From positions 1 to 64,000 of the IMG/VR virus record IMGVR_UViG_3300016471_001035: 64,000 bases of DNA, one strand, 5' to 3'. Below the pieces are notes generated by a model that had not been told where the DNA came from, ran no database searches, and worked only from the letters and a program-made list of their open reading frames with translations. This DNA is from a virus. Position numbers and translations under genes: made by a program. Positions 2,181-8,988 of this stretch are shown in pieces (within the stretch, counting starts at the first letter, position 1; each line of letters starts with the position of its first letter).

Positions 2181-2471
2181 ATGATAAATGTAACTAAACC
2201 TGACTTCTGGCCTCAGGAAAGAGTAGGGCTTCCTTTTGAGAAGTACGAAAAGCTCTCCGATGACGCCAAGAACATGTATAATAAGATCTATGATTACTGT
2301 ACCTACTCCTCAGACCCACGTTACCAGACCCTCCATAAATTCCGTAAAGAGATTAATAGCTTTAACGGGCGTGATAAAGCTTTCTTAATTGAATATTTTA
2401 ACTCTGATCCGGCTATTAACTGGCCGGGTATTTCTGACTTACCGTGGAAGTACTACGAGAAACCTTATTAA
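2181..2471 (+). CDS. hypothetical early protein
   Basis: ORF directly downstream of the promoter. Confidence 0.6.
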   Translation: MINVTKPDFWPQERVGLPFEKYEKLSDDAKNMYNKIYDYCTYSSDPRYQTLHKFRKEINSFNGRDKAFLIEYFNSDPAINWPGISDLPWKYYEKPY

Positions 2472-2716
2472 ACCTTTTAGCAAATACACACAAGAATATT
2501 ATACTCATTCCGACGGTGGCAGTTAAACCTTTTAATACAACTAAATTATCACCTATATGTATTATGGCTTCGAACATATATAGAAATATTTAATCAAGTA
2601 TTATCCCTTTTTTTCTATTATACTTGGTTATATTTCAAACAAACTTAAACAACGATTATCCCCGCCCGAGGATAATAGACTTGCCTATTATCCTCCCCCC
2701 TCTATAATAATATCTT

Positions 2717-3040
2717 ATGGCTAGATGGAAGAAAGGTCAATCTATATATACCAAGTTTATCGATAACTTGGTCGAACACGTTTCTACCCATTACGATGAT
2801 ATCATTAACCCCCGGTCCTCAGGAGTCATTGCATATGCAAAGGCCTGTGTACCCGATTTTATAGATGGTCTAACGGTTAAAGACCTCGCCCTCATCCACG
2901 AATACCTTATGTATATAACTGAGATGAGATCCGATATCCGCATACCCACCTACGTGTATATGGGCGGGGACCGGATTATGTCTGTTACCCGGCATATCCA
3001 AAAGAATATAGACCTAGAATTGGCCAAACAATATGCATAA
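2717..3040 (+). CDS. hypothetical early protein
   Basis: ORF; TTGCCT-N16-TATAAT at 2681-2708. Confidence 0.6.
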   Translation: MARWKKGQSIYTKFIDNLVEHVSTHYDDIINPRSSGVIAYAKACVPDFIDGLTVKDLALIHEYLMYITEMRSDIRIPTYVYMGGDRIMSVTRHIQKNIDLELAKQYA

Positions 3041-3290
3041 TTACGAAATGGCTTTAGGCTCTACCCTTATTGTAGAACATATAATAGATGCTTCTAACAA
3101 ACACCTCAACCCTCTTCCTATCTGCTATTTTGGGATTCTAACCTTTACTATCTTTCTTATTGCAATTTCTTACTTTCTCTATTCCCAAATTACTAAAAGG
3201 TAAACTCCAAAAAACCCATATAGAATAAGCTTGACTGCCTTTTCATTTTATATTATAATACCACATCCCCTTCTCTATTTTTTTTATAAA

Positions 3291-3424
3291 GGTTCAGAGC
3301 TCCCCCCTCCGGCCGTAATCTTAAGGTGGTACATATAGTATAATGGAACTAGCAATTCTGTCAATAACAAAATAAAGCTTGTTTCAACCCAAAAAGCCCA
3401 TATAATATAGGTATGTTAAATAAA
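3291..3424. repeat. Divergent-promoter element, copy 1 (copy 2 at ~5534-5670)
   Basis: Shared blocks GTTCAG..CTCCCCCCTCC.GCCGTAA.CTTAAGGTGGTA, GTCAATAACAAAATA and TATAATA....TATGTTAAATAAA. Confidence 0.85.
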
Positions 3425-3643
3425 GCAAAAGTCGAACAACTACATAACCAATACCTACAATTTGAAAAAGCTATTAGTAAGGTTAGCTATAATAAGCTTA
3501 CAGAATTGTTGGATGTTAATGAAAGTAATTTAGATAGTTTTGATAAAGTGTATGGGGATAAGGTTTGTGAATTGTTAGAAGTGTATGCTACTATCAAATC
3601 TATAATTAAGGAACGCAATAAGCTTGCCAAACTAGTTGACTAA
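3413..3643 (+). CDS. hypothetical early protein
   Basis: Leaderless after TTGTTT-N16-TATAAT; ends ..LVD* over the next -35 box. Confidence 0.65.
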   Translation: MLNKAKVEQLHNQYLQFEKAISKVSYNKLTELLDVNESNLDSFDKVYGDKVCELLEVYATIKSIIKERNKLAKLVD

Positions 3644-3663
3644 ATTTTAATTTCAGCCATAAT
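3636..3663 (+). promoter_or_regulatory. sigma70-type early promoter overlapping upstream stop
   Basis: TTGACT-N16-CATAAT-N6-ATG(3670). Confidence 0.8.
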
Positions 3664-3669
3664 ATAAAA

Positions 3670-4011
3670 ATGAAAACAAGTTGTAAAGTGTGTAATAATA
3701 AAGTGGTAGGGGCTAAAATTAGAGAGCTCTTTAAAGAGGGTTGTATAAAGAATGGTGCTACAGTTGAAGATGCCTATTATGCTAATATGCATAATTGTAG
3801 CAGATATAATAATAAGCTAGTAGATGGTTATAAGATTGTCTATAAAAGTTTAAATTATGGAGCATTCAAAATGTTTAAAAATGATCGCATTAATGTGCAA
3901 AAGGTATGGAAGTATGTATTAGAGCATATTAATAAGATTGATAGTGGGTGGGTGTATAGGGAGTATAGTGGAGAGCATTATGGGATTAGTAAGGAGTTTA
4001 GGGTTGACTAA
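3670..4011 (+). CDS. hypothetical early protein (N-terminal CxxC)
   Basis: ORF with its own promoter. Confidence 0.65.
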   Translation: MKTSCKVCNNKVVGAKIRELFKEGCIKNGATVEDAYYANMHNCSRYNNKLVDGYKIVYKSLNYGAFKMFKNDRINVQKVWKYVLEHINKIDSGWVYREYSGEHYGISKEFRVD

Positions 4012-4031
4012 ATCCAAACTTCCAATATAAT
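4004..4031 (+). promoter_or_regulatory. sigma70-type early promoter
   Basis: TTGACT-N16-TATAAT-N6-ATG(4038). Confidence 0.8.
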
Positions 4032-4037
4032 AGGAGT

Positions 4038-4328
4038 ATGATGAAAAGCAAAATTGAAAAAGTAGTTAGGGAGTTGAAAGCTGATTGTGAAACTGAATTT
4101 GAGGATAGTAATTATGAGGATGTAGTAACAGACTTATACCCCTATTTGAAGAGGATTAATGAGATTAGTGGGTTAAATGATAATAAGAAGCAAGATAAGA
4201 TTTATGAGGAGTTGAAGGATTTTTGTGGTGAAGCCTATTTCCATGTTGCTGAATGTATGTGGGCAGATTTTAATGATAGTTATATTGAAAAGACTGTTAA
4301 TAAGATTGAAGAGATTTTGGTTGACTAA
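4038..4328 (+). CDS. acidic hypothetical early protein
   Basis: D/E-rich ORF with its own promoter. Confidence 0.65.
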   Translation: MMKSKIEKVVRELKADCETEFEDSNYEDVVTDLYPYLKRINEISGLNDNKKQDKIYEELKDFCGEAYFHVAECMWADFNDSYIEKTVNKIEEILVD

Positions 4329-4348
4329 ATCTAAAATTCAGCCATAAT
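4321..4348 (+). promoter_or_regulatory. sigma70-type early promoter
   Basis: TTGACT-N16-CATAAT-N7-ATG(4356). Confidence 0.8.
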
Positions 4349-4355
4349 AGGAGGT

Positions 4356-4565
4356 ATGATGAAACTAGAAAGAAAGAAACAAATTAGTGAGCTTATTGAA
4401 GAGACATTCAATAATGTCACCAAACTAAATGACCTACTCAAGAAATCAGATTATGTGTGGGCCAGAAAGAATAGTGAATCTGAAAATGATGATGATTATG
4501 AATTGGCTGAATCCATTCTTGGGGTGGGAGAGAATCTTAAAGATTGGGGGAAGATGTTTGAATGA
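4356..4565 (+). CDS. acidic hypothetical early protein
   Basis: ORF with its own promoter. Confidence 0.6.
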   Translation: MMKLERKKQISELIEETFNNVTKLNDLLKKSDYVWARKNSESENDDDYELAESILGVGENLKDWGKMFE

Positions 4566-4765
4566 AAACAAAAAATAAGAAAAAGACATTTGAAGTTGAT
4601 ATTGCAGTCACTCTCTTTATCACAAAAGAAGTAGAAGCAGAAGATGAAGATGAAGCTCAATCTATTGCAGAGCATTCCATCAAGACAGGAACTGTTATGG
4701 ATGCTTGGCAGAGTGGAGATTGTGAGATTGAAAGTCAAGGATGTACTGAAGTGGAGGTAGAGTGA
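4562..4765 (+). CDS. acidic hypothetical protein (VEAEDEDEA motif)
   Basis: ATGA overlap with upstream gene; motif common in small phage proteins. Confidence 0.6.
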   Translation: MKTKNKKKTFEVDIAVTLFITKEVEAEDEDEAQSIAEHSIKTGTVMDAWQSGDCEIESQGCTEVEVE

Positions 4766-4980
4766 ATACATTCAAACCATACAATCAAACTAATGTGGTA
4801 GACTTCTATAAGGAGTTGGTGAAGAGGTGGGCAGATGATCAGTTAGATCAACTTCATGAATACCCCATCACTAATAGGAAAGAGGCATTAGAAAGGCTTC
4901 TAGATAGTTCTCTTGATGTGTTTAGGGATGATATTACTGAAGAGATCAGAAAAAGAAATTTATCTTTTTTGGTTGACTAA
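4762..4980 (+). CDS. hypothetical early protein
   Basis: GTGA overlap; ends ..LVD* over the next -35 box. Confidence 0.6.
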   Translation: MNTFKPYNQTNVVDFYKELVKRWADDQLDQLHEYPITNRKEALERLLDSSLDVFRDDITEEIRKRNLSFLVD

Positions 4981-5000
4981 AATCCCAATTCAGATATAAT
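4973..5000 (+). promoter_or_regulatory. sigma70-type early promoter
   Basis: TTGACT-N16-TATAAT-N6-ATG(5007). Confidence 0.8.
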
Positions 5001-5006
5001 AGGTGT

Positions 5007-5312
5007 ATGATGAAAAACAAACAACAGTATCTATCAATTGACTTGTATAATGGCAAAAGCAAGTGGATCTCTCAAAAAGACTTCCTTGCATTTACTATTG
5101 GAGATGAATATGATGGTAAAGATAGTAAAGGGTACTATTATGAGTATAAGACTGATGTGGGGAAAACTGAAAAAGAGTACTATAATTGGAGGGACAATTT
5201 TGAAGACATTCAAAAGACTCCTACCCATACCATCTATAAAACTGAAGAGTGTATGTTAATTGACTTCACCAATCATGACTTTAAGGGTAGTTGGTTAAAG
5301 GAGAACAAATGA
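5007..5312 (+). CDS. hypothetical early protein
   Basis: ORF with its own promoter. Confidence 0.65.
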   Translation: MMKNKQQYLSIDLYNGKSKWISQKDFLAFTIGDEYDGKDSKGYYYEYKTDVGKTEKEYYNWRDNFEDIQKTPTHTIYKTEECMLIDFTNHDFKGSWLKENK

Positions 5313-5470
5313 AAATCAATAAAGAACAAAAAGAGAAAGTACTAGAAGTACTAGAACAATTAGCTGAAGATGCAGGTTATGAGAGTTATGAGAGTGGTGG
5401 TATGGAGAATATTGATAATGTAAATCCATACTACAAGAAGATTTGTAGGGTTCTTAAACTCAACTCCTAA
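5309..5470 (+). CDS. small acidic protein (53 aa, not in ORF track)
   Basis: ATGA overlap; MKINKEQKEKVLEVLEQLAEDAGYESYESGG... Confidence 0.55.
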   Translation: MKINKEQKEKVLEVLEQLAEDAGYESYESGGMENIDNVNPYYKKICRVLKLNS

Positions 5471-5483
5471 CCCATCATAATGG

Positions 5484-5521
5484 AAAAGGCTTATTGTAAA
5501 AGATAAGTCTTTTCTGTTTTT
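5484..5521 (+). terminator. putative intrinsic terminator
   Basis: AAAAGGCTTAT-loop-ATAAGTCTTTT followed by CTGTTTTT. Confidence 0.5.
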
Positions 5522-5533
5522 ATATAGAAAAAT

Positions 5534-5670
5534 GTTCAGTCCAGTCCTCCCCCCTCCTGCCGTAACTTAAGGTGGTAGGTATATTGTATAGGGATTTAGG
5601 TTTTGGTCAATAACAAAATAGTATTTGACTTAAACCAAAATTCTACTATAATAGTTGTATGTTAAATAAA
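5534..5670. repeat. Divergent-promoter element, copy 2
   Basis: See copy 1; minus-strand TTGACC-N16-TACAAT (5610-5583) and plus-strand TTGACT-N16-TATAAT (5625-5652). Confidence 0.85.
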
Positions 5671-5847
5671 AACGAATTTGATAGTTTTGAGGAAATTGAA
5701 AAGTTTATTTATGAAATTGGGGATAGAGATTTAGAGATATATTTTGATAATTTGAAGGAAAGTTATGGGGTTAGTGAATGGGGGGAGGAAAGGATTATAG
5801 AGGAGTTTAGTAAGTATGTGGTTAAAAGTGGGATTTATTTTGTTTGA
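5659..5847 (+). CDS. acidic hypothetical early protein
   Basis: Leaderless; starts MLNK like 3413. Confidence 0.6.
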   Translation: MLNKNEFDSFEEIEKFIYEIGDRDLEIYFDNLKESYGVSEWGEERIIEEFSKYVVKSGIYFV

Positions 5848-5877
5848 ATAAAAAGTAATTTCCAATATAATATAAAA

Positions 5878-6129
5878 ATGATGAATAAAGAAGTTAAAAA
5901 TATATATGGTGGTGAATTGGTAAGTGAAAAGGATGTAATTTGGGATGATGATAAGGAGGTGTTTATTTGTAAGAAAGAATTGGAGGAGGGTAAGTATTAT
6001 GGTTATTATTGTGATGTAAGTAATGAGGGGTTTGTATTTTGGAAGAAAGATGGGAAGGTAGATTATGATGTAGGAGATGTGGATGAATATGGTGATTGGA
6101 TTTTAGTAGAGAAAGGAATTGTTAAATGA
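5878..6129 (+). CDS. acidic hypothetical early protein
   Basis: TTGAAT-N16-TATAAT (5844-5871) upstream. Confidence 0.6.
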   Translation: MMNKEVKNIYGGELVSEKDVIWDDDKEVFICKKELEEGKYYGYYCDVSNEGFVFWKKDGKVDYDVGDVDEYGDWILVEKGIVK

Positions 6130-6398
6130 ATAAAGGATTGAAAGTTAATAGAGGAGAGGATATGGATAGTTTGTATGAAAGTATGGAATATGATTTTGAG
6201 AATGGAGCGGGTATTATTGATAGTTTGAAGCGTATTAATAAAGTTCCGAAAAAGGATTGGGTAAAAGTATTAGAAGGGTTTAAGGAGTGGGAGTTAAGGG
6301 AGTTGGGAGAGAATAGTGAATGGGATAAAGATGAAATGGATAAAGAGAGTGTTGAGTTTATAGAGAAGAATAAGATTAAATGGAATTGGATGTATTGA
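6126..6398 (+). CDS. acidic hypothetical early protein
   Basis: ORF track; E/D/K/W-rich. Confidence 0.55.
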   Translation: MNKGLKVNRGEDMDSLYESMEYDFENGAGIIDSLKRINKVPKKDWVKVLEGFKEWELRELGENSEWDKDEMDKESVEFIEKNKIKWNWMY

Positions 6399-6440
6399 TT
6401 TTGGAGTTGACAAAAAAGTAAATTCCCGTATAATAGGAGT

Positions 6441-6656
6441 ATGATGAAGAAAATATATTTGAATATTGATTGGATGAGTAGGAGTGTTAGTGTTAGTGAT
6501 AAAGAGGGATTTGAGGATTGGAAAAAGTATTTGGTGGAAGAGAATAAATGTGGGGAGAATAAGGATGGGAATAGTTTGGAGATTTATAATGAGGATGATG
6601 AAGATGAGGGTGATAGTATGGTAGAGTTAGAGATTGAAGAGAAAGATTTGTATTGA
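6441..6656 (+). CDS. highly acidic early protein
   Basis: TTGACA-N16-TATAAT (6407-6434) upstream; EDDEDEGD tract. Confidence 0.65.
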   Translation: MMKKIYLNIDWMSRSVSVSDKEGFEDWKKYLVEENKCGENKDGNSLEIYNEDDEDEGDSMVELEIEEKDLY

Positions 6657-6686
6657 CCCAAATCTAAATTCCCCTATAATATGTGT

Positions 6687-6881
6687 ATGATAAATGATAC
6701 AGAGAAGAGTGAGAGGGAGTTGTTTATAGCTTATACAATTGAGAACATTATAAATGGGCTCAAATATATTGGCAATGAAGTGGATCCAGAGAATACCCCA
6801 GCCTGGAATAGTATTAGAAAGCAGTTAGAAACTATTGATAATCAGGTTGATAGGCTGGTAAACAGGACTAAATGGAAATGA
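6687..6881 (+). CDS. hypothetical early protein (start probably 6687)
   Basis: TTGACC-N16-TATAAT (6653-6680), then 6 nt to ATG 6687. Confidence 0.6.
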   Translation: MINDTEKSERELFIAYTIENIINGLKYIGNEVDPENTPAWNSIRKQLETIDNQVDRLVNRTKWK

Positions 6882-7105
6882 AGTTCTCTTATAAGAAGCT
6901 GATTGATGAGCATACAAAAGCTCTCAAGTTAAGATGGGGGGATGATTGCCTCTCTAAAGGAAGTAAGACTGCTATCAATTATGGATGGGGGCAGACAGAT
7001 AACTCTATCTGCTCTAAAATTTATTTGGAGAGTGGGCATCAAGTTTTAGATACTTGGTTTGATGAAGAGGATATGATTTACAGGTCAGCACAATCAGATT
7101 ATTGA
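6872..7105 (+). CDS. hypothetical early protein
   Basis: ORF track; overlaps the upstream stop. Confidence 0.55.
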   Translation: MEMKFSYKKLIDEHTKALKLRWGDDCLSKGSKTAINYGWGQTDNSICSKIYLESGHQVLDTWFDEEDMIYRSAQSDY

Positions 7106-7140
7106 GTTGACTAAACTTAAAGTTCTTTCATAATAATAGC

Positions 7141-7278
7141 AGTTCCTTCCGCAGTACGGGTTTGACTAGCCCAATTGATGTACTGAAGCCCCAACGCCCA
7201 GAGTCTGAGGCGGGTAAAGGTGGGTATATTGTCCTAACTACTGTCGACGTTACTAGAGTAGGGGAGTCGGAAGGAGCT
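7141..7278 (+). ncRNA. putative structured non-coding RNA (~138 nt), family not recognised
   Basis: Promoter TTGACT-N16-CATAAT (7107-7134) with no ATG at +1; 5' AGTTCCTTCCG pairs with 3' CGGAAGGAGCT; internal stems; U-tract follows. Confidence 0.7.
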
Positions 7279-7322
7279 ACTTTTTTAGTTGACGCAAACA
7301 GAAGTTCAGCCATAATAGTAGT

Positions 7323-7493
7323 ATGATGAAATTCGAAACACAAAGACAGATTGAATATTGGTTGGAAGAAATGAATAACGGACATTTCGATAATATGTAT
7401 GAGAATTGTTGTGATATGTATGATAGTGAGGTGTTGATTGTTGATGAGTTTAATAATCAAATCAATTTCTTCTTGAGTGAGGCTTGTCCATAA
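7323..7493 (+). CDS. small acidic early protein (56 aa, not in ORF track)
   Basis: TTGACG-N16-CATAAT-N6-ATG; MMKFETQRQIEYWLEEM... Confidence 0.6.
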   Translation: MMKFETQRQIEYWLEEMNNGHFDNMYENCCDMYDSEVLIVDEFNNQINFFLSEACP

Positions 7494-7533
7494 TTTGGCT
7501 TGACCCAAACCTACATTCAGCCATAATAGTAGT

Positions 7534-7701
7534 ATGATGACAATGACGATCAGAGAAGCGGTGAAGAAGTATAAGAAGAAGGATACGTGCAGGTACTTCT
7601 TGAAATGTACCAATAAAGCCACCACCACCATCCCCAGTCCTATTCTGGGTGAGGTGCCTGCTTGTAAGAGCTGTTCAGACTTCTATAAGAGACAATCATG
7701 A
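7534..7701 (+). CDS. small Cys-rich early protein (55 aa, not in ORF track)
   Basis: TTGACC-N16-CATAAT-N6-ATG; C-x5-C...CxxC, possible Zn finger. Confidence 0.6.
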   Translation: MMTMTIREAVKKYKKKDTCRYFLKCTNKATTTIPSPILGEVPACKSCSDFYKRQS

Positions 7702-7925
7702 CATACAGAGTTACTTGGTATTCAATGTGGGCCAGACCTCAGATATATGATGGGCTCACCAAGCAAGAAGCAGATACTTTAGTCTGGCAGGGTAGGGAGA
7801 GTCAGTATAAAGTAAAGGTAGAAGAGTTTGAGATAGATGGTGATAATCGAACTACACTCGAATAACGCCCCCCGAGCTTAAACTTTATAGTTGACCAACC
7901 CCCAAGAAGCACCTACAATAGTAGT

Positions 7926-8246
7926 ATGATGAATAAAGAAGTTACTTACGAGATCTACGATACAATGATTGGTGATTGGCGCAAAGTCTCCGAGCCTGCT
8001 ATCGGAGGTATTAAGTGGGAGAAGCGTGAGCAGATCGGGGATGAGGTCCAATCTGCCTATTACGATAACTCCTTCTACAAGGTACCCTTCTATGGCCCTT
8101 ACGATCAGGGTCGTATCCATCGTGCTCTCAACAATTTATATCCCGCACGATTCAATAAGTTCGGTGGTTATACTACCGTTTCAAGCGTAGAGCAGCTTGA
8201 TGATCAACACATTAAGGTAGAGCTCTGCTACCATATCGGAGACTAA
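7926..8246 (+). CDS. hypothetical early protein
   Basis: TTGACC-N17-TACAAT-N6-ATG. Confidence 0.65.
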   Translation: MMNKEVTYEIYDTMIGDWRKVSEPAIGGIKWEKREQIGDEVQSAYYDNSFYKVPFYGPYDQGRIHRALNNLYPARFNKFGGYTTVSSVEQLDDQHIKVELCYHIGD

Positions 8247-8248
8247 CT

Positions 8249-8467
8249 ATGACAAGTAAGCTCAGAGCATTCGAAGACATCATATTAAACATACCAGAAA
8301 CGTGCGAGCTTAAGGGAGCTCTAAGGGGCGCTATCAACGATAGTGATATTCGTACCGAAGATAAGCGTCGGTTACATATGCACATCAATCAATGTAACAC
8401 TATCAACGACTTACAGAGGTTATTCTACAACGCTTTACTCAAGTATGAAGGACATGGAGTTGTATGA
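8249..8467 (+). CDS. hypothetical protein
   Basis: ORF in operon; ends FYNALLKYEGHGVV. Confidence 0.55.
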   Translation: MTSKLRAFEDIILNIPETCELKGALRGAINDSDIRTEDKRRLHMHINQCNTINDLQRLFYNALLKYEGHGVV

Positions 8468-8760
8468 GTTGGGTGGCTCGTAAGATTTGTATGTCAGATG
8501 ATGTTAATCAAGATCAAGTTATCAAAGAGTACTTTGATAAGAAGGAGATGAAACTACTTGAAGAACAAGAGATTAAGAAGTTCTGGGAAGAGTATGGTGA
8601 TGAATACTATACAGGAGGCGAATAATGGATAAGCTTATACACTTCTGTTTGATGGTGTTAGCTAACCTCATTGCTCTGGCCATCTACGCACTTGTGAGTA
8701 TTACTATCTGGAAGAGCATTTGGTAGTTGCCGTTAACCCAAGTTCCATTATAATAGGAGG

Positions 8761-8988
8761 ATGATGAATAACACAGTAACCGTTGAATTGCCTCGGGCTG
8801 AGAAGGCTGAGGATAGTACAGGAGGTAAGGTAGGCTATTGCATCGGCACCCTTCTTAACCTCAAACAAATGATGCATATCAATTCTGGTAGGGGTGGTGA
8901 GGGAGTGTTCTCTCAGTCTGAGATGCTCCAACAGATCGATAAGGTTATCGACAAGCTAGATCAGATCACTTACCCTTACGCGGTTTAA
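8761..8988 (+). CDS. hypothetical early protein
   Basis: TTGCCG-N16-TATAAT-N6-ATG. Confidence 0.6.
   Translation: MMNNTVTVELPRAEKAEDSTGGKVGYCIGTLLNLKQMMHINSGRGGEGVFSQSEMLQQIDKVIDKLDQITYPYAV

Follow-up and report, generated by a model that had tools for sequence, protein, structure and literature searches.

Why would a phage keep, in two places about 2 kb apart, the same pair of back-to-back promoters, one of each pair firing away from the early genes into a G-rich block that encodes no protein? This question is raised by the first 64,000 nucleotides (nt; hereafter the window) of the viral record IMGVR_UViG_3300016471_001035 from IMG/VR, in which two ~133-bp copies of such an element lie at 3292-3424 and 5525-5670. 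An initial annotation, made from the letters of the window and its open reading frames (ORFs), had read the two copies either as transcription-primed replication origins or as the source of a small RNA that sequesters the anti-Shine-Dalgarno (anti-SD) end of 16S rRNA. Judging from its sequence, the element is a real, widespread and strongly constrained non-coding cassette, most likely a gene for an early small RNA that is maintained as a fixed pair.

Anatomy and conservation of the cassette

Each copy consists of four parts: a minus-strand promoter, a conserved block, a short A/T-rich stretch and a plus-strand early promoter. Aligned with each other, the copies are 70% identical over 3320-3424 versus 5566-5670 and 85% identical over 3292-3318 versus 5539-5565. 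The minus strand of each presents a near-consensus sigma70 promoter followed by ACCACCUU-purines-UUACGGC-GGAGGGGGGAG-CUGRAC. The minus promoter of copy 1 (TTGACA-16-TATACT, 3337-3364) matches the consensus at 11 of 12 positions and that of copy 2 (TTGACC-16-TACAAT, 5583-5610) at 10 of 12, the TACAAT form being common to the whole copy 2 lineage; both are among the best sigma70 matches of the region from 2.5 to 6.0 kb, with scores equal to those of the plus-strand early promoters. The conserved transcribed block, also on the minus strand (ACCACCUUAAGAUUACGGCCGGAGGGGGGAGCUCUGAAC, 3292-3330, in copy 1; extended to CUGGACUGAACAUUUUUCUA, 5525-5576, in copy 2), begins in both copies at the seventh base past the -10 box, the A of ACCACC (3330 and 5576, the predicted transcription starts). 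The duplicated back-to-back arrangement, the G-rich non-coding region behind its minus promoters and the predicted transcript starts 6 nt past the -10 box are thus as first described. The copies also share no ORF, as had been noted; they differ by a 1-nt indel and contain stops.

Back to back with the minus promoter stands the plus-strand early promoter. The A/T-rich stretch between the two -35 boxes (3365-3378 in copy 1, with ATTTTGTTA upstream of the minus -35) is kept in nearly all copies. The plus promoter can be read directly in copy 1 (TTGTTT-16-TATAAT with an ATG at 3413; 3379-3415), where its -35 box is weak, and was found by sequence reading and promoter scan in copy 2 (TTGACT-16-TATAAT with an ATG at 5659; 5625-5661). 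Both plus-strand -10 boxes lie six bases ahead of the ATG, and the early mRNAs should therefore be leaderless. In the window, as in the entire 139.6-kb record, there are exactly two occurrences of the core motif (0.01 would be expected by chance), and a complete relative of 229,717 bp (G002) likewise has exactly two; an nhmmer profile gives nothing further in either the source record (G000) or G002.

Conservation in relatives, whose absence would have counted against the initial annotation, is extensive. Pattern scans, which fix three blocks (20 of the 40 bases) and so render those blocks invariant by construction, located the element in about 40 contigs from lake metagenomes and in three IMG/VR genomes besides the source. 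The total comes to about 46 distinct copies from lake metagenomes and four IMG/VR genomes; a distant clade has diverged blocks, and the element is absent from cultured phages. A profile search (hidden Markov model) of the retrieved contigs, which does not depend on the pattern, added 12 further copies with another linker and one base changed in block II, reading ACCACCTT-CAA/GAAA/GAAAA-TTAAGGC. One phage with merely 45-65% protein identity to the source retains 38 of the 40 bases (it was found by the pattern that fixes 20). The distant clade was reached, again independently of the pattern, by way of a neighbouring SprT-like gene; two of its members, at 69-74% protein identity, each have a single diverged copy: a TGGMCM-16-TATACT promoter, an extra leader of 18-19 nt, then ACCATCTT-RAAAA-TTAAGAG-AGGAGRGGGGG-ACTCTGGAC. 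By eye, the leader of these two copies (L488:411-519 and L493:4584-4691, minus strand) looks as if the linker, block II and GGAG part had been repeated in tandem, though incompletely (~11/15). Across all of this material the conserved core is ACCAYCUU, a purine-rich linker of 3-5 nt, UUAMGR, GGAGR with a G-run, and CUSUGGAC, and every copy, the distant clade included, has GGAG (as AGGAGG or GAGGAG) and a run of five to seven Gs.

Mean pairwise identity among 33 copies is 0.91 in the -10 box and 0.80 in the -35 box, as against 0.53 in the 16-nt spacer; it is 0.83 in the 14 nt after GGAGG and falls to 0.47 in the following 20 nt. The observation that the transcribed part is better conserved than the promoter spacers is therefore borne out (0.83 versus 0.53). 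The -10 variants TATACT, TACAAT and CAAACT all retain A-11 and T-7. As the hexamers are kept while the spacer is free to vary, the minus promoter behaves like a working promoter.

Homology ends about 40 nt past the start, a limit that moves out to about 50 nt in the second-copy lineage. Downstream of the element come at least 19 unrelated sequences, and behind the plus promoter at least eight unrelated first genes, which rules out linkage to one particular downstream gene. Because the flanks on both sides differ between copies, the promoter and its 40 nt constitute an autonomous cassette. Where two copies share a contig, their order, orientation and spacing (1.85-2.63 kb) are always the same (16 of 16 contigs), with the TATACT-type copy first; the second copy is of the TACAAT type in 13 of these contigs, and in the other three (the G002 group) it combines a TATACT form with the same sequence downstream.

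Two further observations concern the surroundings of the element. A small palindrome, CTTTAC-(2-3 nt)-GTAAAG, recurs after it in several unrelated contexts (L072, L064, L088, L493) and is absent from the window. Contigs of related phages (G001, G003 and several loci) often stop in or beside the element or the array of early promoters; that of G001, 121 kb long, does so at the position equivalent to 5549 of the window; assemblies of this phage group therefore tend to break there.

The source record, of which the window is the beginning, has an estimated completeness of 66% and carries genes for a T4-type major capsid protein Gp23, portal Gp20, both ribonucleotide reductase subunits and a baseplate hub. 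Its closest cultured relatives by capsid protein are cyanomyophages, at only ~32% identity, and the virus is therefore a distant uncultured T4-like phage; assigning a host through GMP reductase look-alikes proved uninformative. Three paralogous tail-fibre-like genes at 99-1518 have a 155-nt repeat in common (72-80% identical), which is probably the reason why the contig begins there.

A candidate trans-acting small RNA

We give a probability of roughly 40% to the reading that the element encodes an early, trans-acting, single-stranded small RNA that serves as a decoy or sponge. Host RNA polymerase would start at the strong sigma70-type promoter facing away from the early genes and produce a C-poor, G-rich RNA whose first 40-50 nt would be conserved and single-stranded. 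The RNA of the second copy would terminate about 100 nt out at a bidirectional terminator, giving a layout of 5' recognition region and 3' hairpin. It would probably act in trans through the exposed blocks ACCAYCUU, UUAMGR and GGAGRGGGG, drawing off, as decoy or sponge, some host factor that recognises purine-rich, Shine-Dalgarno (SD)-like RNA, the leading candidate being the anti-SD tail of the 30S subunit. An occupied anti-SD would disfavour SD-led host messages, while leaderless phage messages could still start. The promoter anatomy, the conservation and autonomy of the cassette, the absence of an ORF and of stable structure, and the terminator are seen in the sequences; that an RNA is made, acts in trans and has such a target we infer.

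No stable fold exists on either strand. All folding z-scores are positive (+0.1 to +2.1), 188-196 of 200 shuffles fold at least as well as the minus-strand RNA, the copy 1 block folds worse than its shuffles, and alifold reaches only -4.6 kcal/mol. RNAfold repeatedly pairs the G-run with the pyrimidines that follow GAC, but the resulting hairpin is no better than those formed with random genomic 14-mers in 19 contexts. The sole hint of pairing is a 4-bp YCUU/AAGR mini-helix, in which the distant clade shows a single compensatory change (C-G to U-A); it has a U-C mismatch throughout the first-copy lineage, and we do not count it as established. Among the covariance models of Rfam 15 none matches the element, even at E-values up to 10. 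Evolution has tolerated a linker length varying by two bases and an 18-nt insertion between the promoter and block I, which suits a linear motif borne by a transcript better than it does a promoter-escape signal or a rigid site in double-stranded DNA.

A probable 3' end can be placed in the second-copy lineage, where the conserved part leads into a U5 tract and a hairpin with flanking A- and U-tracts follows at about +60 to +100 (ACAAGCA...UGCUUGU-UUUUU in 9 of 16 second-copy contexts). In the window the corresponding hairpin, at 5479-5518, terminates the first early cluster and, read on the minus strand, probably marks where the copy 2 RNA stops (~95-100 nt); in the minus direction it is weaker here, but relatives have it as a perfect bidirectional terminator. 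Its sequence suggests a bidirectional terminator shared with the converging early cluster, which would show that the first cluster is spared antisense transcription. The product of the second copy can accordingly be predicted as a discrete RNA of ~100 nt with a single-stranded, conserved 5' half.

Copy 1 is faced by an extra plus-strand promoter (TTGACT-17-TATAAT, 3231-3259, 11 of 12 consensus matches) that converges on its minus promoter. No ORF lies behind it, and its transcript (ACCACAUCCCCUUCUCU-U8-...) would be exactly complementary to the predicted copy 1 RNA over ~63 nt. This converging promoter is present in only about one third of the copy 1 contexts among relatives.

Several features agree with the ribosome as the target, a more specific proposal that we hold to be doubtful. 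The GGAG core, which is complementary to CCUCC and occurs in all copies, is largely unpaired in the predicted folds, and the early phage genes are leaderless by their promoter-to-ATG spacing. The phage also has its own bS21 ribosomal protein, of 70 amino acids, encoded outside the window at 84843-85055 of the source record (Pfam PF01165, 40 bits) with no SD preceding its start; the version in G002 has 67 amino acids and lies at ~39.3 kb. bS21 touches the 3' tail of 16S rRNA (PMC7797042). To this extent the anti-SD decoy of the initial annotation gains circumstantial support; none comes from hybridisation to 16S rRNA, for the duplex energy with 16S 3' ends does not rise above that of shuffled RNA. 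In all nine tests of antisense pairing to the 16S 3' minor domain, which set three variants of the element against the 3' ends of three 16S rRNAs, 20-97% of shuffles were equal or better.

That failure is one of several points that weigh against the small RNA reading. Block I resembles the 16S 3' end itself at 8 of 9 positions (ACCACCUUA versus ACCUCCUUA; p ~0.005, i.e. about 0.5% of the 38-mers of the genome), a likeness that decays in the distant clade, which has ACCAUCUU; mimicry of the 16S tail is therefore not maintained, and we have downgraded block I as a copy of that tail to a lead. The copy 1 lineage has no recognisable terminator. A BLAST scan for complementary words finds no target beyond chance in the phage genomes, only chance 10-12-mers, the best of which (2691-2702) lies inside a promoter spacer: the promoter TTGCCT-16-TATAAT at 2681-2708 (plus strand), ahead of the ATG at 2717, has a C6 run in its spacer, and this run, rather than a transcript target, explains the match to the G-run. 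The fixed order and spacing of the two copies hint at a position-dependent role in cis, and the conserved run of five to seven Gs and the other blocks exceed what a mimic of the SD would need.

CsrA, offered in the initial annotation as another protein that the displayed GGAGG might bind, must be given up: only one GGA motif is conserved, and copy 1 in the window has just that one, which does not make a CsrA sponge. The genome shows no avoidance of GGAGG or G-runs, their counts being near expectation, and neither T4 RegB (the RNase that cuts at GGAG) nor AsiA has a Pfam match.

An extended version of the proposal, in which translation initiation is retuned by an abundant early RNA sitting on the 30S platform or anti-SD tail, or titrating bS21 or IF3, in concert with the phage bS21, we consider improbable. 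If true, it would move ribosomes from SD-led host messages to leaderless phage messages and to the phage's AUU-started gene, and, as an RNA-based shut-off of the host, would have no described precedent.

The interest of the cassette lies in the nucleotide-level conservation of a fixed pair in widespread lake T4-like jumbo phages whose proteins have drifted to ~50% identity, and in its belonging to no catalogued RNA family. The same phages combine leaderless messages, early transcripts stripped of cytosine, guanine replaced in their DNA and a bS21 of their own. A strongly expressed, SD-bearing RNA, if true, would offer a handle on how the phage takes over translation; if instead the origin reading is true, the element would be a handle on the start of replication in distant relatives of T4.

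Replication origin, boundary module and other rivals

The proposal of an origin had drawn on a switch in GC skew near copy 1. Locally the switch is real: skew is -0.18 over 2181-3203, +0.37 over 3413-5470 and +0.71 over 5659-7105, returning to +0.13 past 7.1 kb. On the scale of the genome there is no inflection, at the element or elsewhere; in both G000 and G002 the skew tracks the coding strand, and its extremes are confined to 3.4-7.1 kb, where they coincide with two C-depleted early gene clusters, one headed by each copy (3413-7105, plus strand; 10.3% and 4.8% C). The coding strand of the second cluster (5659-7105) has no C at all in 6001-6200, and in the early clusters each of the three codon positions has 7-8% C. 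What the switch marks is where early transcription units starved of C begin, not a replication inflection, and we have discarded skew as an origin signal. The predicted minus-strand transcript is likewise G-rich and C-poor; richness in G and poverty in C are a property of early transcripts and no evidence for an origin. The depletion of C might be due to evasion of Rho, to avoidance of restriction sites or to a template nearly free of modified guanine.

The same early region (3636-8780, plus strand) contains at least ten promoter cassettes of the form TTGAC-16-TATAAT in which ATGATG comes six or seven bases behind the -10 box. In four of ten, AGGAG fills the gap between the -10 box and the start; it could be an SD in transcripts that read through from upstream, while the transcript from each gene's own promoter is leaderless.

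With skew set aside, a transcription-primed origin must be judged on the element itself, and we regard it as unlikely. The nascent G-run would nucleate a hybrid on the C-run template, the A/T-rich DNA would open and the 3' end of the RNA would prime the leading strand. A strong promoter followed by a run of five to seven Gs is conserved in all copies, including those of the distant clade, the RNA is unstructured and hence free to remain annealed, and the copies are few and fixed in each genome. T4 origins are themselves composed of a promoter and an unwinding element, oriE using an early promoter (PMC3016281). What stands of the earlier claim is this succession of promoter and easier-melting DNA: in stability the element ranks in the top 2% of 40-mers, and the 40 bp that come next rank in the bottom 5-16%. 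The melting is modest, however, as the unwinding region at +40 to +80 reaches only the 84th-95th percentile of instability; the sequence beyond +40 is unrelated between copies, the downstream DNA is G-poor, unlike known R-loop extension zones, and a terminator lies ~100 nt downstream of copy 2. T4 origins have no common sequence motif and their R-loops are independent of the specific sequence transcribed (PMC3016281), so that near-invariant ACCAYCUU and UUAMG blocks would be left unexplained. For the helicase loader gp59, neither G000 nor the complete G002 gives a match to PF08993, in a search whose control also matched nowhere, leaving the absence unproven. In T4, gp59 is an accessory factor that is not strictly required.

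Quite unlikely, in our estimate, is a boundary or recombination module resembling the PeSL cassettes of T4-type phages: a patch of homology for the exchange of early cassettes, whose outward promoter would block incoming transcription by collision and whose conservation would come from frequent exchange and promoter function rather than from an RNA product. Homology is indeed lost sharply on both sides, the neighbours are many and different, the copies head two early clusters in fixed order, contigs often break at the element, and its plus-strand RNA is the sole C-rich patch of the C-starved region. PeSLs, moreover, are early promoters with G-tract and C-tract motifs that mediate shuffling (PMC2839356). 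Their stem-loops are stable, however, whereas the element folds worse than shuffles on both strands; ordinary early promoters are far less conserved than the 40-nt block; that block is diverged yet recognisable in the distant clade, which points to purifying selection on the sequence itself; and copy 2 is already insulated by the bidirectional terminator.

It is very improbable that the RNA is a decoy for a host RNA-binding defence protein, such as a single-unit mimic of a type III antitoxin RNA, in the manner of pseudo-ToxI, or a mimic of a CRISPR repeat. The unit is short (~40 nt), has its own strong early promoter and sits among tiny acidic early genes; it has a 9-nt run, ACCTTAAGT, and a CGG two or three bases further on in common with the annotated pseudo-ToxI of phage phiTE, and the distant-clade leader is, in our own reading, a partial tandem duplicate of the unit. 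Against these likenesses, the units are single and form no tandem array, no pseudoknot or repeat-stem is predicted, and the match to phiTE is one short word that turned up only after other resemblances had been tried. Among the matches listed by three pattern scans over 185,579 bacterial species representatives there were only chance hits, with neither the element nor an array of it nor any host counterpart, and a CRISPR-repeat or host-array mimic gains no support from them.

Least probable of all is that the element is bound as double-stranded DNA by a protein of the phage or the host, either an initiator or a regulator of the divergent promoters, and that the minus promoter is secondary. About 40 bp are indeed strongly conserved beside two promoters, and the inverted words CCTT...AAGG are kept as YCTT...AAGR in the distant clade. 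Yet the gaps between blocks differ by 0-7 bp among copies and the promoter's distance differs by 18 bp, shifts that rigid DNA sites seldom tolerate; there are no iterons, and the minus promoter is itself conserved like a working promoter.

Comparison with known systems

The T4 origins oriF, oriG and oriE share with the element a promoter for the host polymerase followed by easier-melting A/T-rich DNA, a small number of copies per genome and a T4-type phage as carrier. They differ in that T4 uses MotA middle promoters at oriF and oriG (oriE is early) and has no motif common to its origins (PMC3016281), where the element has a near-invariant block of 40 nt; the unwinding region here is modest, with no gp59 or AsiA match and no support from skew. 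The PeSL cassettes (Arbiol et al. 2010, PMC2839356) resemble it in their sigma70-like early promoter, A/T-rich upstream part and G-tract motif, and in being repeated at the mosaic junctions of a hyperplastic region of small orphan genes. A PeSL faces its gene, however, and has a stable G...C stem-loop terminator (PMC2839356). The element, in contrast, faces away from genes, with no downstream ORF and no stable stem, and occurs exactly twice in fixed order.

ColE1 RNA II and mitochondrial CSB II use a promoter-proximal G-run for a primer-forming hybrid. The element likewise has, within a conserved block, a promoter-proximal run of five to seven Gs in the nascent RNA over a C-run template, but it has neither a second G-tract for a quadruplex nor a folded domain like that of RNA II. 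The pseudo-ToxI of Pectobacterium phage phiTE (PMC3475682; JQ015307, 106714-106772) is a short phage non-coding unit of similar size that has ACCTTAAGT in common with the element; it is, however, a tandem array of 1.5 repeats that mimics a known host antitoxin (PMC3475682), whereas the units here are single and 2 kb apart.

The small RNAs of the RybB/OmrA type and the sponges CsrB and RsmY, finally, have their own promoter, a conserved unstructured 5' part and paralogous copies, as the element does. The predicted RNAs here contain one to three GGA motifs each, not conserved beyond a single one, and so are not a CsrB-like sponge, and the copy 1 lineage is without a terminator; in the copy 2 lineage, the variable 3' part ends in a terminator hairpin as it does in RNAs of the RybB/OmrA type.

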